From: Escherichia coli
GTDB taxonomy: Bacteria > Pseudomonadota > Gammaproteobacteria > Enterobacterales > Enterobacteriaceae
Length of the DNA: 64,000 nucleotides
Reading direction: 5' to 3' (one strand)
NCBI RefSeq assembly: GCF_011045215.1
Contig: NZ_CP049201.1
In this document: positions 1,468 through 15,933 of the stretch, in pieces
Layout of the letters: each line of letters begins with the position of its first letter
Position numbering within the stretch: the stretch's first letter is position 1
The notes under the pieces: generated by a model
Databases searched by the model: none
Told to the model about the DNA's origin: nothing
The model's input: the letters and a program-made list of their open reading frames with translations, nothing else
Made by a program: the position numbers and the translations under genes

Positions 1468-1593
1468 GTAAAAAAACACCCCGTCAAAGGCACCCGCAGA
1501 TGCCTTTTGTGTGGTGTTATCTGGTGTTTTCTGATGTGGTGTGTGCAGGACACAGATGTGAAAAAGGTCCGCCGGTACGAACCCTGTGTATGG

Positions 1594-1621
1594 ATAAAAA
1601 AATGCCCGTCATGAGACGGGC
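1594..1621 (-). terminator. Second minus-strand Rho-independent terminator upstream of the lysis genes
   Basis: Minus-sense GCCCGUC-UCAU-GACGGGC hairpin (1604-1621) followed by AUUUUUUUAU. Confidence 0.65.
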
Positions 1622-1674
1622 TAACGCATTCATCATGCAAGAGTTAAGCAGGATTACCTGTATCGAATTATCGG

Positions 1675-1752
1675 TATCAGAATGAGTCGTCAACCTGCAA
1701 CGCAATTCTGACGAATCGTAGACCCCGGTTCAGGCGACGACTCATTCTGATA
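1675..1752. repeat. Perfect 17-bp inverted repeat with a 44-nt spacer
   Basis: tatcagaatgagtcgtc (1675-1691) and gacgactcattctgata (1736-1752) are exact reverse complements. Confidence 0.9.
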
Positions 1753-1896
1753 ACGCATACCATTAACAATGTAAAAAACACAGCACTGAAACTGTAACCG
1801 GCCAGGCATTACAGAATGAAGAAAATAAAGTGTCCGCAACCAGATTCTTCACGAAAATTCGTCAGTGCTGATAAAGCTATGACTCATCAGTTTTAC

Positions 1897-1972
1897 TGGA
1901 GAACGGTGGCGGGAATCGAACCCACATCATCAGCCTGGAAAGCTGAGGTAATAGCCATTATACGATACCCGC
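1897..1972 (-). tRNA. tRNA-Gly(UCC)-like element with an unpaired acceptor stem (probable pseudo-tRNA)
   Basis: The reverse complement GCGGGTATCGTATAATGGCTATTACCTCAGCTTTCCAGGCTGATGATGTGGGTTCGATTCCCGC... matches E. coli glyT as recalled through the D, anticodon and T arms. The 3' strand CACCGTT cannot pair with 5' GCGGGTA. Confidence 0.5.
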
Positions 1973-2190
1973 ATACTGTGCTGGCTTCCGGAATCACACG
2001 AATTACCGGGAAAGCCAGCACTGGTCTTTCCGGTGGCAAGCAACACCCCTGTGAACATAAAGACAACCACCTTCCGGACCAGTCAGAATACTAACGACAG
2101 TTTTTCAGACATCAAAAATATATTTGGTGTTCAGTTTTAAATATGTGTATACATCTGTATCAGAAATATACAACTTATATCATCACTGAA

Positions 2191-3902: not shown

Positions 3903-4913
3903 TTGTACGAAATACATTACGACGTTGAGTCTGAACAGCAAGCTTTTGAATTACTTGAACGTTACCTAAACGGACAAGCTTTACCCGAAAAAATTAGTTT
4001 CAATGGTTGGCCAAGTCTAACCATCAGGTTGACTGGTGAAAAATTCAACAAATCACTCACACCTTCAGTTATGAAAGGATTTGTTGAAATGCAATCGCAA
4101 CTCAATAAGTCTTATGCGCTAGCAAAGTTCGGAACTCCTGATGTCCGCAGGCTAACAAAAGAAGAACTTGATGCTTTAGAAATTGAAGTTACAGTAGAGC
4201 AAGGTTCATCTCTTGTAGAGATTAACATTGATGGCTTCCTAAGCAAGCTTACGCACGAACTGGTAGGGAAAATGAACGCCACAGAGATTGTATTTACGGT
4301 TCTCGGTGCTGCCGTTATATGGGGCGGTGTAACCGTCTTCAAACGCTATCTGGATAACCGTAAAGATACTCGGTTGGCTGAAATTGCTAAAGAAGGCGAC
4401 AAAGAACACCTACGCGCAATGCAAGTGATGACACAGGAGGAAACAAAACGCCTCCAAATCATCTCAGAAATGGTGGCTAAAAAACCTCTACTCGACAATA
4501 TGGATCGAATGTCTTATGACGCTAAAACCACCATGGTTAAATCTTTCGTGCGTTCAGATTCAGCAGAAATTGACGGTGTCACAATAGATTCAGAAACGGC
4601 AAAAGAGCTAGTAACAAATGCTCGTCGACGCTCAGTTGAAATGAGAATAGACGGTATATACCGTATCGAAGAAGTGAATAATACCGACCCCGAAAGCTTC
4701 AAAGTTAAGGTTCGAAAGGTCGATTCTGATCAACGTTTGACCTGCGTTGTTCAGGATATATTCCTTGATGAATCAGGGAACAAAGAAGCCTTACAGCGAG
4801 CTGAATGGGAAAGAAAGCCTGTGCATTTAAGCATCAATGCCAAACACATTGATGGAGATATCAAGTCCGCCGTAATTTTACATGTGAAAGATGTTGAAGA
4901 TAAGCCCGAGTAA
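3903..4913 (+). CDS. Hypothetical 336-aa single-pass membrane protein, counter-oriented moron
   Basis: TTG start with GAGGGA (3891-3896) 6 nt upstream. One hydrophobic helix (IVFTVLGAAVIWGGVTVF) between two charged soluble regions. AT-rich. Opposite strand to all neighbours. Confidence 0.75.
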   Translation: MYEIHYDVESEQQAFELLERYLNGQALPEKISFNGWPSLTIRLTGEKFNKSLTPSVMKGFVEMQSQLNKSYALAKFGTPDVRRLTKEELDALEIEVTVEQGSSLVEINIDGFLSKLTHELVGKMNATEIVFTVLGAAVIWGGVTVFKRYLDNRKDTRLAEIAKEGDKEHLRAMQVMTQEETKRLQIISEMVAKKPLLDNMDRMSYDAKTTMVKSFVRSDSAEIDGVTIDSETAKELVTNARRRSVEMRIDGIYRIEEVNNTDPESFKVKVRKVDSDQRLTCVVQDIFLDESGNKEALQRAEWERKPVHLSINAKHIDGDIKSAVILHVKDVEDKPE

Positions 4914-11468: not shown

Positions 11469-12197
11469 CTAACCAACATTTGAACGCCAGCTCTCCCAGT
11501 TAAAATTCACCCAGCGACCACCGTTCATGGTCATGCGGTCCATCACGCGCTCGCCAAGCAGCGTATTCATTGCCGTATGGTTCAGGTTCGTCAGCATCCC
11601 GACGCTGTGCATCGAGGCTGTTCTGCGATCGACTATCTGGTTCAGTGTGACCTGTTCGTTACGCGTATCCCGCTGCATACCAATTTCATCCAGGACAAGC
11701 AGGTCAACTTCACACAACCCCTGCAAAAATTTTTCGCCCGAGTTTTTGTTGTCGTAGTTGCCGTGTAACGCCAGCATCACATCCGCCACCGTCACCACAA
11801 TCACGCTGCGACCTTTCGCCAGAAGATGGTTGCCAATGGCTGCTGCCAGATGATTCTTTCCGGTACCCGGCTTACCGCTGAACACGAAATTTGTGCATCC
11901 GGTCATCATTTCTTCCGCGATGGATTTTGCCTGGCTCAGCGCGTGGCGTTGGCCATCGTTCTTCACCTGGTAATTCGCAAACGAACACTTCTGGTGCAAC
12001 AGTTGGATACCGGAACGCTTCATAATTTTCTCCACCCGGATCTGGCGATTCTGGCGGTTAATTTCCTCACTACGCTTTCGCCCTTCTGCAAGCTGCCACT
12101 CTCGCCACTCGTCCACTGTCCGGTACGGCGCGGTTACATGCTGCGGGGCCAGCTTACGGATACGCTCAAGAACACCACCTGCCGCAATATTTTTCAT
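11469..12197 (-). CDS. DnaC-like replication helicase loader (lambda P analogue, YdaV-like)
   Basis: Walker A GKPGTGKNHLAAAIG and Walker B LLVLDEIG. Confidence 0.9.
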   Translation of the reverse strand: MKNIAAGGVLERIRKLAPQHVTAPYRTVDEWREWQLAEGRKRSEEINRQNRQIRVEKIMKRSGIQLLHQKCSFANYQVKNDGQRHALSQAKSIAEEMMTGCTNFVFSGKPGTGKNHLAAAIGNHLLAKGRSVIVVTVADVMLALHGNYDNKNSGEKFLQGLCEVDLLVLDEIGMQRDTRNEQVTLNQIVDRRTASMHSVGMLTNLNHTAMNTLLGERVMDRMTMNGGRWVNFNWESWRSNVG

Positions 12198-12203
12198 AAC
12201 CCG

Positions 12204-13313
12204 TTACCCCCTGAATCCCGGCGGAATTTCGGTATCCGGTTCAGAAATATGATTCACACAACGCTGGTTGTTCGTGCCGCTTACCGGGAGCAACCAGGGG
12301 TTTTCAAAATTCCGGTCCGGTCCAAAAAACGTCGTCGCTCGCTGAACAAATTCCGTTCCCGCTTTCCCGGTCGCCGCCAGGTATCTCGCGTAACGCCTCA
12401 CACCATCCAGCATGGTCTCTGGTGGCACCCCCTCGCGCAATCTGGCCTTCCAGGCACTGAATGCGGATTTCTTCGGGTTTGCCCCGGCACGCAACGGGTA
12501 TTCCCGCCAGACCTGTTCGAACACATCCGGATAATCCACTCGTCCCACAGGCCGCCCGGTGTTTTCCGGGACTACCCGATCGGCTTCCCGCTGAATGGCG
12601 GAATCGGCTTCAGGCTGCTGCAGTTGGTGTGATTGCTCCGACCCTGCGGTCATCACCTGCTGCACAGCGCCCGAATCGGTTTTCAGCGCATACGCCGAAT
12701 CGGCTTCCGGTGTCGTGCCTGCTGGCTGACCAGAATTTACGGTCTGAACATCCCCTGCCTGGTTCGTGGTGTTTTTTTCGCCATGAGCTATAGTGTTTTT
12801 GTCCTGTTCTTTCTCCTGCTCCTGTTCCTGTTCTTGGCTTCGAAGCCCCTTAAAAGCCCCTTCGAAGCCCCTTACCGAATTTCGGCTATTATTCCGCCTC
12901 ACATCCAGATGGAAATCCGTTTTATATCTGTCGTAAAACGCTGACAGAAAAGCGTTTTCAGGTAATGATGCATACTCATTCCTGACACCTGCACAACGGT
13001 TATCGCCAGGCTTCAACGTTTCCCCAACCTGCCAGGCTGCCATTTCATGGACCCAGACCATCTCGGCATCATGGTCATAGCTACAAAAACCAGCTTCAAC
13101 AGCCCTTTTAAGCCCCTTTGAAGCCCCTTCCAGACCAAGCCCGGTTTCATGAGCAAGGTATAAAACTGGCAGGTAATACAAACCCAGCATATTTGCGTGA
13201 GGGGATGTCATCAGGTAAAAAGCAACAACTTGCGCTTCTGCACCCGCCTTTCTAAGTTCTCTCCCCGTTTCTCCCAGCCAGAATCGCGGAGAAACTTTTG
13301 CGTAATCACGCAT
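12204..13313 (-). CDS. Replication initiator (O analogue; YdaU/DUF1376-like N-terminus)
   Basis: MRDYAKVSPRFWLGETG... start with a GAGG SD. Sits upstream of the dnaC-like gene. Contains iteron-like repeats. Confidence 0.8.
   Translation of the reverse strand: MRDYAKVSPRFWLGETGRELRKAGAEAQVVAFYLMTSPHANMLGLYYLPVLYLAHETGLGLEGASKGLKRAVEAGFCSYDHDAEMVWVHEMAAWQVGETLKPGDNRCAGVRNEYASLPENAFLSAFYDRYKTDFHLDVRRNNSRNSVRGFEGAFKGLRSQEQEQEQEKEQDKNTIAHGEKNTTNQAGDVQTVNSGQPAGTTPEADSAYALKTDSGAVQQVMTAGSEQSHQLQQPEADSAIQREADRVVPENTGRPVGRVDYPDVFEQVWREYPLRAGANPKKSAFSAWKARLREGVPPETMLDGVRRYARYLAATGKAGTEFVQRATTFFGPDRNFENPWLLPVSGTNNQRCVNHISEPDTEIPPGFRG
12843..12873. repeat. Three AAGCCCCTT repeats at 11-bp spacing (candidate origin iterons, cluster 1)
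   Basis: Exact 9-mers start at 12843, 12854 and 12865, inside the O-like gene next to a low-complexity (QE)n-coding tract. Confidence 0.5.
13099..13129. repeat. Three AAGCCCCTT-type repeats at 11-bp spacing (candidate iterons, cluster 2)
   Basis: Exact 9-mers at 13110 and 13121 plus a degenerate copy at about 13100. Lies 256 bp from cluster 1. Confidence 0.5.
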
Positions 13314-13391
13314 GGCTACCTCATCTGGTGCCGAACCTTCCTCCGGATATAATCTGTGGTTCCCAATCGACAGAACCAGAGGAGGTTCGAC

Positions 13392-13847
13392 ATGTATTTT
13401 TTGAAAAGCCTTTATCAGGCTCATGTATTAAATGTTGCAGCAACAAACCGCTGGTGTAACAGCCCCGAAATGCTCCCGGATTACAGAGCCTGGCTGCGCG
13501 CCGAAACATACCTTCGTCTCGACATATTGATTAGCGAACTTCAAAAAGAGACTGCATCCATTCATAACCTTCAGGGTATCGACGCTGTTCGCATTCTGGT
13601 ATCGCGCCATAGTGCTCTCTCAATAATTGAAGTGCGTCATCTCTCTTTTTCTGAACTGATTTTCTTGCTTCAACCAGCTCTGGAATCAGCGAATATCCCA
13701 CCGAAAGTGATCCAATACCCACCTCATGTTGACGAGCAGTTACAAGATGTGCCATACAACCAGCGTGCTGGATTGACTCCCTGCTCAGAGGCTGAATGGG
13801 ATCACTCTCTGCTGAAGAAATACCAAGATTTGTATAATCCTCAATAA
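13392..13847 (+). CDS. Hypothetical 151-aa protein, counter-oriented within the early-right operon
   Basis: ATG preceded by GAGGAGG (13379-13385) with a 6-nt spacer. Perfect TATAAT at 13348-13353. Hairpin at 13894-13929 downstream. Overlaps a minus-strand ORF. Confidence 0.5.
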   Translation: MYFLKSLYQAHVLNVAATNRWCNSPEMLPDYRAWLRAETYLRLDILISELQKETASIHNLQGIDAVRILVSRHSALSIIEVRHLSFSELIFLLQPALESANIPPKVIQYPPHVDEQLQDVPYNQRAGLTPCSEAEWDHSLLKKYQDLYNPQ

Positions 13848-14040
13848 GCCCGGCACACGCTTCTGCATCAGCCAGCTTTATTCTGGTTTCCTTGCGCTGC
13901 TCTCTGGCTGACAAACGCCAGAGCAGCGCATTAGCTTTATGTATCAACCACTCTGCCAGCTCCACATCAGATAAACCGCCACGCCAGATGTGCGGACTGT
14001 TTTCGTAAACGCTCAGTGTCAATTTTTTGTCATTACTCAT
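13531..14040 (-). CDS. Hypothetical 169-aa ORF between the CII-like and O-like genes (may be a shadow of 13392-13847)
   Basis: Co-oriented with the operon, starts MSNDKKLTLSVYENSPHIW. Weak SD. Contains a 13-15 bp inverted repeat. Shares 317 bp with the plus-strand ORF. Confidence 0.4.
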   Translation of the reverse strand: MSNDKKLTLSVYENSPHIWRGGLSDVELAEWLIHKANALLWRLSAREQRKETRIKLADAEACAGLIEDYTNLGISSAESDPIQPLSRESIQHAGCMAHLVTARQHEVGIGSLSVGYSLIPELVEARKSVQKKRDDALQLLREHYGAIPECEQRRYPEGYEWMQSLFEVR

Positions 14041-14053
14041 ATTTATTACCCAA

Positions 14054-14479
14054 TTAATGCACAGCCAGAGTGTTTCCTGCCGGGCCACCACGATTCATCT
14101 GATCGAACAGAACGATCGCTGATGCAACGAAATCATCAATATCTTTCACCAGCCGTTCCTTCGTCTCTACCAACTCCCGAAAATAAGCGGAACTGTGGCT
14201 GCGCATTCGGGCCACCAGCGGAGGCGGCATTGCTTTTTCGATCGCTGGTAACAACGCCTGAATTTTTTTAACCGCATCAGGGGTGTCTTTATCCAGCCAA
14301 CGGAAAATTTTCTGGGTATTACGAGCCAGCGCTTCCGGATGCCTGTCGTCATATAGCTCCGGGAACGTCATACCCAGCTCAAAATAAGCCTGGGTTATTT
14401 CAGCTGCCGGAACTTTTTCACCGTCCGGATGCGCCCAGGCATTCATCGCCATACGGATGTGTTCATGCTTGATTTTCAT
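14054..14479 (-). CDS. YdaT-type (CII-like) regulator
   Basis: MKIKHEHI... N-terminus and length resemble Rac YdaT as recalled. Follows the Cro-like gene. Confidence 0.8.
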   Translation of the reverse strand: MKIKHEHIRMAMNAWAHPDGEKVPAAEITQAYFELGMTFPELYDDRHPEALARNTQKIFRWLDKDTPDAVKKIQALLPAIEKAMPPPLVARMRSHSSAYFRELVETKERLVKDIDDFVASAIVLFDQMNRGGPAGNTLAVH

Positions 14480-14738
14480 GAATCAACTCCGGTGTATTTG
14501 GTGTGTTAGCCTTATCTCCAGCAGGCAACCCGTCAGTTGGATTCGGGTATAAATCTGGTCGCAATTCATGAGGAGTCACCCCAGTTGCAATATAAATTTG
14601 ACGAACCCGTTCCCCCGTCGGAACTCGACCATTGTATTCATTTGCCCATTTGTGTATTTGAGATGGCCAAGCCCCTATTGCACGCCCTAGTGGACGAATA
14701 CCACCAGCAATCTTTATTGCTTTGTCCAATGCTGTCAT
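14463..14738 (-). CDS. Cro-like repressor (YdaS/DUF1019 type)
   Basis: HTH protein divergent from the repressor gene. MTALDKAIKIAGGIRPLGRAIG... Confidence 0.8.
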   Translation of the reverse strand: MTALDKAIKIAGGIRPLGRAIGAWPSQIHKWANEYNGRVPTGERVRQIYIATGVTPHELRPDLYPNPTDGLPAGDKANTPNTPELIHENQA

Positions 14739-14841: not shown

Positions 14842-15231
14842 ATGGACATGAGAAAAAAGCAATACGACACCCCGCTAGCAGAAAGGTTAGATGCGATCTC
14901 TCAACAGCATCATTTAAGTGGTTCAGATTTAGCGCGTATCGCTGGTGTAGGTCGTTCATCAGTCAACGCATGGAAAAAAAGAGGAACAATCAGTAAAGAT
15001 TCCGCAGCCAAAATTGCAGAAGCCACAAACGTTTCCCTTTCTTGGCTACTGACAGGGAAAGAAGAGACAAATAGAGAAGCGCTTGATGATGACGAGAAGG
15101 CCCTGCTTGATGTTTACAGAAACCTGCCACCTGTAGAACGTAGAAATATGCTGGCAGCTTTTCAAATGCGACTTCAAAAACTGACCGAATTTTACTCAGA
15201 ATACGTCGACCCAATAACACGACAAAAATAA
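14842..15231 (+). CDS. Prophage repressor, DicA-like (XRE HTH, no S24 peptidase domain)
   Basis: HTH LSGSDLARIAGVGRSSVNAWKKRG plus a C-terminal ALLDVYRNLPPVERRN segment like that of DicA. The ATG lies 7 nt after the TATAAT, suggesting a leaderless mRNA. Confidence 0.85.
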   Translation: MDMRKKQYDTPLAERLDAISQQHHLSGSDLARIAGVGRSSVNAWKKRGTISKDSAAKIAEATNVSLSWLLTGKEETNREALDDDEKALLDVYRNLPPVERRNMLAAFQMRLQKLTEFYSEYVDPITRQK

Positions 15232-15252: not shown

Positions 15253-15276
15253 ACCGCCGCAAGGCGGTTTTTTTTA
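15253..15276 (+). terminator. Rho-independent terminator after the repressor gene
   Basis: ACCGCC-gcaa-GGCGGT hairpin followed by TTTTTTTT. Confidence 0.85.
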
Positions 15277-15714: not shown

Positions 15715-15933
15715 ATGCAGAAACGAGAACCCCTCATCATCGCACCAGACTATACCGATGATGAACTTTATGAGTGGATGCGCGGGAAGATACGCGCCAT
15801 TAATGACCTGAAGCAGGCCACTGACCACAAAGAGCGCCTCTCTGAAACACTGACGTCAGTGACGCAGGATATTATCGCTCTGGCAAAAAGCGCGGCATTA
15901 AACGTTTCGCGACCGGTAAAAACAACTGACTAA
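15715..15933 (+). CDS. ydfC: YdfC homologue (72 aa)
   Basis: MQKREPLIIAPDYTDDELYEWMR... resembles K-12 YdfC as recalled. Confidence 0.75.
   Translation: MQKREPLIIAPDYTDDELYEWMRGKIRAINDLKQATDHKERLSETLTSVTQDIIALAKSAALNVSRPVKTTD

Follow-up and report, generated by a model that had tools for sequence, protein, structure and literature searches.

Two convergent reading frames in an Escherichia coli prophage

The window analysed here is a stretch of 64,000 nucleotides (nt) of the Escherichia coli contig NZ_CP049201.1 (assembly GCF_011045215.1). Within a prophage it contains two convergent open reading frames (ORFs), referred to below as the plus gene and the minus gene after their strands, which share coding sequence at their 3′ ends. 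An earlier reading of the window from its letters alone (the original prediction) had drawn attention to this region and had left two options: either one ORF is a shadow of the other or the two form a genuine antisense gene pair. Selection tests and stop avoidance decide for the second option and the comparative evidence rules against the first; both genes are very probably real, with both frames under purifying selection in the overlap. The pair consists of the following features.

13392–13847, plus strand: plus gene, 151 aa, ECs1072 family, RefSeq WP_000273724.1
13531–14040, minus strand: minus gene, 169 aa, phrog_8304, third gene of the ydaS-ydaT operon
13531–13847, both strands: dual-coding overlap, 317 nt including both stop codons, register 'sas11'

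The distance between the two starts (14040−13392=648=3×216) places codon position 1 opposite codon position 1, with plus position 2 opposite minus position 3 and plus position 3 opposite minus position 2. This confirmed the earlier description of a register other than the usual RNY (purine–any base–pyrimidine) shadow register. The minus ORF running from 14040 to 13531 behind a weak Shine–Dalgarno (SD) sequence, and the 317 nt open on both strands, were likewise found as described.

Both proteins belong to families that are on record, and the earlier statement that neither could be recognised holds only insofar as these families have no assigned function. The plus ORF matched the NCBIfam model NF033230 with 104.6 bits (cutoff 70; E 4.6e-30; profile positions 3–141 of 142), and RefSeq names the identical E. 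coli coding sequence 'ECs1072 family phage-associated protein'. The minus ORF matched phrog_8304 over positions 1–169 of 169 (E 3.7e-119), and distant members of the minus family matched the same profile with E values of 1e-22 to 2e-39. The window plus protein matched phrog_5286 weakly (E 0.014) and distant plus-family members matched it with E values of 1e-14 to 4e-18, while hhalign aligned the plus family with gp36 of Shigella phage SfIV over 135 columns (probability 58 %, E 1e-4). This suggests that phrog_5286 represents the wider plus family, including SfIV gp36-like proteins, and that the window plus protein is a remote relative. Neither protein matched Pfam, or the defence and toxin–antitoxin models of PADLOC-DB at E≤0.1; searches of Pfam, NCBIfam, PHROGs and PADLOC returned solely families without assigned function. 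Sequence-profile searches of the PDB gave no match, nor did Foldseek against BFVD at E≤0.001. AlphaFold 2 (AF2), with eight sequences as input, predicted a compact all-helical domain for the plus protein, with a predicted local distance difference test score (pLDDT) of 84.6 and a predicted template modelling score (pTM) of 0.81.

In E. coli, RefSeq annotates the plus ORF and omits the minus ORF; the reverse holds for Klebsiella (WP_258550843.1), Serratia (WP_237735406.1) and Yokenella (WP_237723274.1), where the minus ORF is the one on record. Each of the RefSeq records compared carried one ORF or the other and none carried both, because annotation disallows long overlaps. In E. coli, for which there is an NCBIfam model, the pipeline settles on the plus ORF, and homologous loci thereby receive non-homologous annotated proteins. 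This choice between the two ORFs amounts to a systematic annotation blind spot. ECs1072 is listed in a table of microarray expression in uninduced cultures of O157 strain Sakai (PMC2241611). No paper on this gene pair was found in the literature.

Selection on the shared sequence and conservation of the pair

Substitution rates by codon position were obtained from nine phylogenetically independent sequence pairs, drawn from lineages that share ancestry. The parts coding in one frame only showed ordinary coding signatures, with rates at codon positions 1, 2 and 3 of 0.198, 0.147 and 0.346 for the plus-only part and of 0.189, 0.141 and 0.330 for the minus-only part in the minus frame. Rates in the overlap were 0.158, 0.167 and 0.223 in the plus frame, and both wobble positions were lower than in the single-coding parts (P=1e-6 for plus and P=8e-13 for minus). 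The plus wobble position was more variable than the minus wobble position (0.223 vs 0.167), which indicates stronger constraint on the plus frame than on the minus frame.

An OLGenie-type test, performed as a pairwise Nei–Gojobori-type count and not on a tree, was applied to pairs 1–7 with sites classed as non-synonymous in both frames (NN), synonymous in the plus frame only (SN) or synonymous in the minus frame only (NS). The ratio of non-synonymous to synonymous change in the overlap was 0.35 for the plus frame (dNN/dSN; bootstrap confidence interval 0.26–0.47) and 0.49 for the minus frame (dNN/dNS; bootstrap confidence interval 0.35–0.68). In the control on the single-coding parts, a phantom antisense frame in the same register gave 1.03–1.37 and the real gene 0.28–0.31. 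The original prediction had envisaged that the minus frame alone might prove to be under purifying selection; this was not seen.

Stop avoidance was assessed by holding one protein fixed and resampling its synonymous codons. The other frame stayed open with a probability of 0.002–0.41 per lineage (median ~0.06), and codon permutation gave a median open probability of ~0.01, while both frames were open in all 18 non-redundant sequences. Over 12 diverged lineages the products of the open probabilities are of the order of 1e-15 to 1e-17 on the assumption that the lineages are independent, a figure that overstates the significance as they are not fully so. Plus genes that lack a partner (Salmonella lineage D, L007; SfIV gp36; Klebsiella phage KpF5) had six to seven stops in the antisense frame, and comparisons of lineage D were again rich in third-position differences in the region homologous to the overlap (e.g. 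52, 41 and 69 differences at the three positions per 103 codons). The overlap also contains an imperfect 14-nt inverted repeat (13703–13716 and 13796–13809), 86 % complementary, with the arms 79 nt apart.

Protein searches detected full-length homologues of both ORFs in Salmonella down to ~50 % identity; there the two ORFs occur together in another prophage context (Int-Cox...ASH-ExoVIII), and in one Salmonella locus (L009) the overlap is likewise 317 nt. A minus profile compared with 1.8 billion representative proteins yielded 23 matches at E≤0.001, of which 22 were family members, mostly of ~146–163 aa and with conserved motifs continuing well into the overlap. Two of these motifs, YxxLGxSxxxSDPIxPLSxEAIQF and PVGYSxLPDL, are kept inside the overlap across lineages at 30–40 % identity. 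A scan of IMG/VR with the minus profile identified 54 loci, including 20 distant ones (33–47 % identity), and every one of these 20 had a full-length plus-family ORF on the opposite strand. All lineages with the minus gene had the convergent pair in identical register, with an overlap of 257–323 nt including stops, and no locus had the minus gene but not the plus gene. The hosts, according to the sources, were E. coli, Salmonella, Klebsiella spp., Serratia fonticola and Yokenella, and the pair is kept down to ~30 % protein identity in at least five enterobacterial genera. Of 5,426 complete E. coli genomes, 450 carried a 901-base segment of the window with ≥99 % identity and 478 contained it overall; the E. 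coli carriers of the cassette include O157, O26 and O121 strains. INPHARED phage records contained no DNA or protein match for the window genes, nor for one distant minus protein, and a scan of GTDB genome contigs gave no confirmed relative.

The position of the pair varied. In E. coli it is flanked by ydaT and the O-like gene and in L017 by int/xis and the repressor; in L072 it adjoins lysis and terminase genes, and it also occurs after cro-/cII-like genes and before replication genes. This indicates that the mobile unit is a two-gene cassette. The original prediction had described a self-contained plus-strand cassette; its own leader, SD sequence, terminator-like hairpin and antisense orientation to the operon were all recovered, and what moves is the two-gene module.

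The plus gene was found without a minus partner in L007 and L008. Cultured phages also have full-length remote plus homologues, among them SfIV gp36, which includes the C-terminal EWD motif that lies inside the overlap region; no long antisense ORF was present in it. The plus family is thus wider, also occurs without a partner and has a confident predicted fold, which suggests that the plus frame is the older one. The C-terminal ~100 residues (two-thirds) of the minus protein would then most likely have arisen by overprinting, on the strand opposite a plus gene that already existed. In the SfIV locus (L075) a 73-aa ORF at 2751–2972 is convergent with gp36, with an overlap of 29 nt at the gp36 3′ end. 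Visual comparison shows a resemblance of this ORF to a 72-aa ORF of the window at 15715–15933, the two having a common ...APxYTxxExYEWM... motif.

Several observations weigh against two functional genes in this sequence, which were identified here by sequence comparison. The C-terminal ~20–25 residues of the minus protein, corresponding to the distal ~60 nt of the window overlap, are not conserved between lineages, and the position of the minus stop varies (proteins of 148–197 aa). The minus gene is frameshifted in L017/L018 and in L063 and is without its N-terminal domain in L126/L127. The AF2 model of the minus protein is of low confidence, with extended helices (pLDDT 56.5, pTM 0.27). The distal ~60 nt of the 317-nt overlap is probably a dispensable tail, and the disrupted or remodelled copies indicate that the minus gene can be lost or remodelled.

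The altered copies differ in kind. The frameshift in L017 (3584–3835) and L018 (619–870) follows codon ~47 and is present in two independent assemblies, with the downstream register frame still open to the usual stop (LFEDL-stop), and in L063 the minus gene is broken up over two frames. Such copies have the look of recent inactivations, although programmed frameshifting is possible as well. In L126/L127 the plus gene is undamaged and the minus gene (1526–1981, minus strand of the locus) lacks the conserved N-terminal NSPHIW domain, has a new methionine start (MSYNLMNEH...) just past the plus stop and is open across nearly the whole plus ORF.

Three other explanations were weighed against a pair of real genes. 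It is very unlikely that the plus gene alone is real, as RefSeq has it in E. coli, and that the minus ORF is a chance or shadow ORF. In favour of this reading, annotation of E. coli by the Prokaryotic Genome Annotation Pipeline (PGAP) includes the plus ORF alone, the window has a weak minus SD, the minus AF2 model is poor and the overlap wobble is slightly more variable in plus than in minus (0.223 vs 0.167). However, the 64 minus codons outside the overlap have a clear coding pattern (0.189, 0.141, 0.330), the 22 diverged minus representatives keep their motifs into the overlap and the SD is good in most lineages. The minus frame is open in 18 of 18 sequences against an expectation of ~0.06 per lineage and has six to seven stops where the plus gene has no partner; its dNN/dNS of 0.49 contrasts with 1.0–1.4 for phantom frames; and the minus ORF is what RefSeq itself records in Klebsiella, Serratia and Yokenella. 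The mirror case, with only the minus gene (phrog_8304) real and the plus ORF as its shadow, is hardly credible. A coding pattern is seen in the plus-only N-terminal region, the plus gene has a leader, strong SD and ATG that are kept family-wide, AF2 reached its confident plus model from just eight sequences, and plus homologues exist without a minus gene (L007, and SfIV gp36 down to the C-terminal EWD motif). A dNN/dSN of 0.35 points the same way, and stop avoidance is not automatic in a register other than the RNY shadow register. These observations outweigh the choice of the minus ORF by gene callers and RefSeq in several genera and its codirectionality with the surrounding operon.

A third explanation accepts both genes and takes the overlapped part of the minus gene as a functionless read-through tail, with the constraint coming from the plus protein and a nucleic-acid requirement. 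The variable length and sequence of the minus C-terminus, the low-confidence extended helices of the minus model, the existence of frameshifted minus genes and a nucleic-acid constraint nearby, in the form of a terminator hairpin inside coding sequence, would all fit such a tail. It is nevertheless unlikely, as the minus motifs inside the overlap are kept across lineages at 30–40 % identity and every lineage has an open minus frame of at least 85 codons. Substitutions silent in minus and altering plus accumulate faster than those altering both (0.49, confidence interval 0.35–0.68), where constraint from the plus protein alone predicts a ratio of ≥1, as in the controls. Perfectly complementary transcripts pair without sequence conservation. 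A replication origin or iterons were rejected as the source of constraint because no repeats were found, and no Rfam family matched.

Expression signals and prophage surroundings

The plus gene is flanked by the following elements.

13325–13353, plus strand: promoter-like element, with a −35-like CTGGTG (13325–13330), a 17-nt spacer and a perfect −10 TATAAT (13348–13353)
13326–13346, plus strand: leader box 1, TGGTGCCGAACCTTCCTCCGG, complementary to the SD region (anti-SD)
13372–13391, plus strand: leader box 2, AGAACC-AGAGGAGG-TTCGAC, with the SD at 13379–13385 and a 6-nt spacer
13893–13930, plus strand: terminator-like hairpin of the plus transcript, 46 nt past the plus stop and inside minus codons 37–50
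13970–14005, plus strand: remnant of an ancestral plus-strand terminator, identical with the minus codons for NSPHIWRGGL

The layout given in the original prediction is all in the sequence: TATAAT at 13348–13353, GAGGAGG at 13379–13385, 25 nt further on, the 6-nt spacer TTCGAC, ATG at 13392 and the stop at 13847. Across the family the leader consists of a core of box 1, TGGTGCCGAAC, which is at least 90 % conserved family-wide, a −10-like hexamer at a fixed distance and, 25–45 nt on, AGAACCnAAGGAGGTTCGAC-ATG, which is kept in nearly all lineages down to 30 % protein identity. A (T/C)TGGTG followed 16–18 nt on by an A/T-rich −10-like box is kept in position in all lineages. This is consistent with 13325–13353 acting as the promoter of the plus gene. 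Against a promoter, the −35 is poor and was not called by a simple sigma-70 scan, and the −10 box is weak in the Salmonella lineages.

The full leader (13318–13400) folded with the SD paired at −26.9 kcal/mol (z −2.9). In this model, the SD would be sequestered in transcripts that begin upstream of box 1 and not in those that begin after the TATAAT. RNAalifold gave no covariation support for the anti-SD pairing, which counts against it. The one leader structure that it did support was a 5-bp GAACC/GGTTC hairpin, also without covariation, and a leader RNA structure was rejected. In L007 (4462–5010, leader match 4543–4556) and L008 (708–1174) a second, unrelated plus-strand ORF follows the partner-less plus gene; a near-identical leader copy (TGGTGCCGAAC...AACAGAACCTAAGGAGGTTCGACATG) stands in front of this ORF (151 aa in L008). 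The leader therefore looks like a portable expression signal common to different cargo genes. The SD of the minus gene is good in most lineages and weak in the window; there the minus ATG lies 13 nt past the ydaT stop, which suggests that the gene is read as part of the early operon.

The hairpin noted earlier inside the minus coding sequence was confirmed, with perfect 11-nt arms (13893–13903 and 13920–13930) and an extended stem of −25 kcal/mol. It was found only in the E. coli lineage (lineage A), and it may be the terminator of the plus transcript. It lacks a canonical U-tract, however, and its tail ATTAGCTTTATG is only moderately U-rich, which weighs against termination there. Most other lineages have a different hairpin, CAGCCCGC...GCGGGCTG, followed by a T-run, 110–130 nt past the plus stop (−15 to −24 kcal/mol), and this hairpin is encoded by the minus codons for N-S-P-H-I-W-x-G-G-L. 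Synonymous choice in the arm codons is biased (AGC 11/14, CCG 13/14, CAC 11/13, GGC 11/14 and GGG 10/14), and their synonymous positions are far more conserved than those at other invariant residues. This indicates that the NSPHIW-GGL stretch serves as a protein motif and as a nucleic-acid structure together. The ancestral stem is down to 4 bp in the window (13976–13994) through synonymous changes, and the new, stronger hairpin at 13893–13930 appears to stand in for the older terminator in this lineage.

The pair sits where a lambdoid E. coli prophage of the Rac/CP-933P type has its immunity and replication genes. The plus unit is antisense to the surrounding operon of the Cro/CII/O/P type, and the neighbouring genes are as follows.

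14842–15231, plus strand: CI-type repressor
14463–14738, minus strand: Cro-like YdaS
14054–14479, minus strand: CII-like YdaT
12204–13313, minus strand: O-like replication gene, true start 13313
11469–12197, minus strand: DnaC-like gene

The start of the replication gene at 13313 follows the RefSeq annotation; a longer mechanical ORF up to 13424 is not the gene. The published YdaT operator is TTGATTN6AATCAA (PMC9986795). A perfect copy of this operator, OM (TTGATTTTCATGAATCAA), is present at 14469–14486 at the ydaS/ydaT junction, which identifies the immunity region as of the CP-933P type. Matches with up to three mismatches numbered 43 in the window against 41 expected. One match with two mismatches, 13527–13544 (TTGATTAGCGAACTTCAA), lies exactly over the stop codon of the minus gene; as a YdaT operator it is within chance expectation and was rejected. 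After the repressor the relatives L002 and L015 carry a paaA2-parE2 toxin–antitoxin pair, in place of which the window has a terminator (15253–15268) and different small ORFs.

Proposed mechanism and comparison with known systems

The minus gene would be read within the phage early (pR-type) operon, in the window directly after the cII-like ydaT. The plus gene would form an autonomous opposing unit, equipped with a promoter-like box, a conserved leader that contains a strong SD and a terminator of its own. This putative terminator falls within the 5′ part of the minus gene, so that the transcript of the plus gene would be antisense to most of the minus ORF: to its 3′ four-fifths in the window (up to ~13930) and to almost the whole of it in lineages with the ancestral terminator. 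Convergent transcription and RNA pairing could then make the two proteins mutually exclusive, with the plus protein made in the lysogen and the minus protein after induction or infection. The one-sided dependence of the minus gene on the plus gene suggests that the minus protein acts on or with the plus protein. It is conceivable, if somewhat doubtful, that the pair is an interlocked module of effector and antidote, with a lysogen-expressed plus effector and an early-expressed minus antidote or regulator; candidate roles for the effector would be exclusion, abortive infection or modulation of the host.

If this were true, recombination could not part the antidote from the effector and transcribing either gene would silence the other. 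The pair would then represent an undescribed addiction or defence module in which the terminator of the effector lies inside the most conserved motif of the antidote. The location of the cassette in the region controlling lysis and lysogeny means that it may affect prophage induction or immunity.

Long antisense overlaps of two protein-coding genes are contested in prokaryotes, and to our knowledge the accepted cases are few, young and taxonomically narrow. The present pair appears to be a rare and previously undescribed case, in which each protein family is already in databases and the pairing is new. With the non-overlapped halves of both genes and the partner-less relatives as internal controls, it offers an unusually clean system for the co-evolution of two proteins on one stretch of DNA and for gene birth by overprinting.

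The known element closest in position is the oop RNA of phage lambda, a 77-nt non-coding RNA that overlaps cII and is antisense to its 3′ end. Like oop, the plus unit is short, opposes the early operon, lies between a cII-type gene and a replication gene and would be expected to interfere with early-operon expression through antisense pairing and convergent transcription. The likeness to oop put forward in the original prediction stands for position and, under the proposed mechanism, for mode of action. The unit is not a member of the oop class, since the plus transcript encodes a conserved 151-aa protein, matches no Rfam family and overlaps a separate 169-aa gene rather than ydaT; its hairpin ends at 13930, and 124 nt separate it from the ydaT stop at 14054. 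In contrast to oop, the cassette is also found at non-equivalent places, e.g. next to int/xis and in a late region.

A classical phage moron is a single gene inserted between two genes as an autonomous unit of promoter, gene and terminator. The plus gene resembles morons in opposing the neighbouring operon and in its insertion in varied genomic contexts, and its promoter-like box, with a perfect −10 and a poor −35, its SD and its terminator-like hairpin may make it an autonomous unit of this kind. Unlike a moron, it is locked to a second gene of the host operon through the coding sequence that the two have in common.

Antisense overlapping genes reported from E. coli O157:H7 include nog1/citC, ano/ECs2385, pop/ompA and the oloz genes (PMC9927249, PMC5960689). 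Three of these O157:H7 overlapping genes are confined to Escherichia/Shigella, with mother genes that are more widespread, and none lies in a phage-derived region (PMC9927249); ano is described as a 186-bp ORF that lies almost entirely inside an annotated gene (PMC5960689). As in those cases, the present pair consists of protein frames on opposite strands in the same group of organisms, with one member suppressed in annotation. The O157:H7 genes are short or embedded, young and located in widespread mother genes, with support mainly from ribosome profiling and phenotypes. The present genes, in contrast, lie tail-to-tail, each with a non-overlapped part, are kept at ~30 % identity across genera and have evolutionary support. 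In Pseudomonas aeruginosa, olg1 and olg2 are described as evolutionarily novel ORFs embedded within annotated genes (PMC8850804). The present pair has in common with them a long antisense overlap and purifying selection on the alternative frame by an OLGenie-type test (PMC8850804). It differs from olg1 and olg2, which are described as fully embedded within chromosomal genes, in being a mobile prophage cassette with a partial 3′–3′ overlap and a putative terminator inside the conserved motif of its partner.

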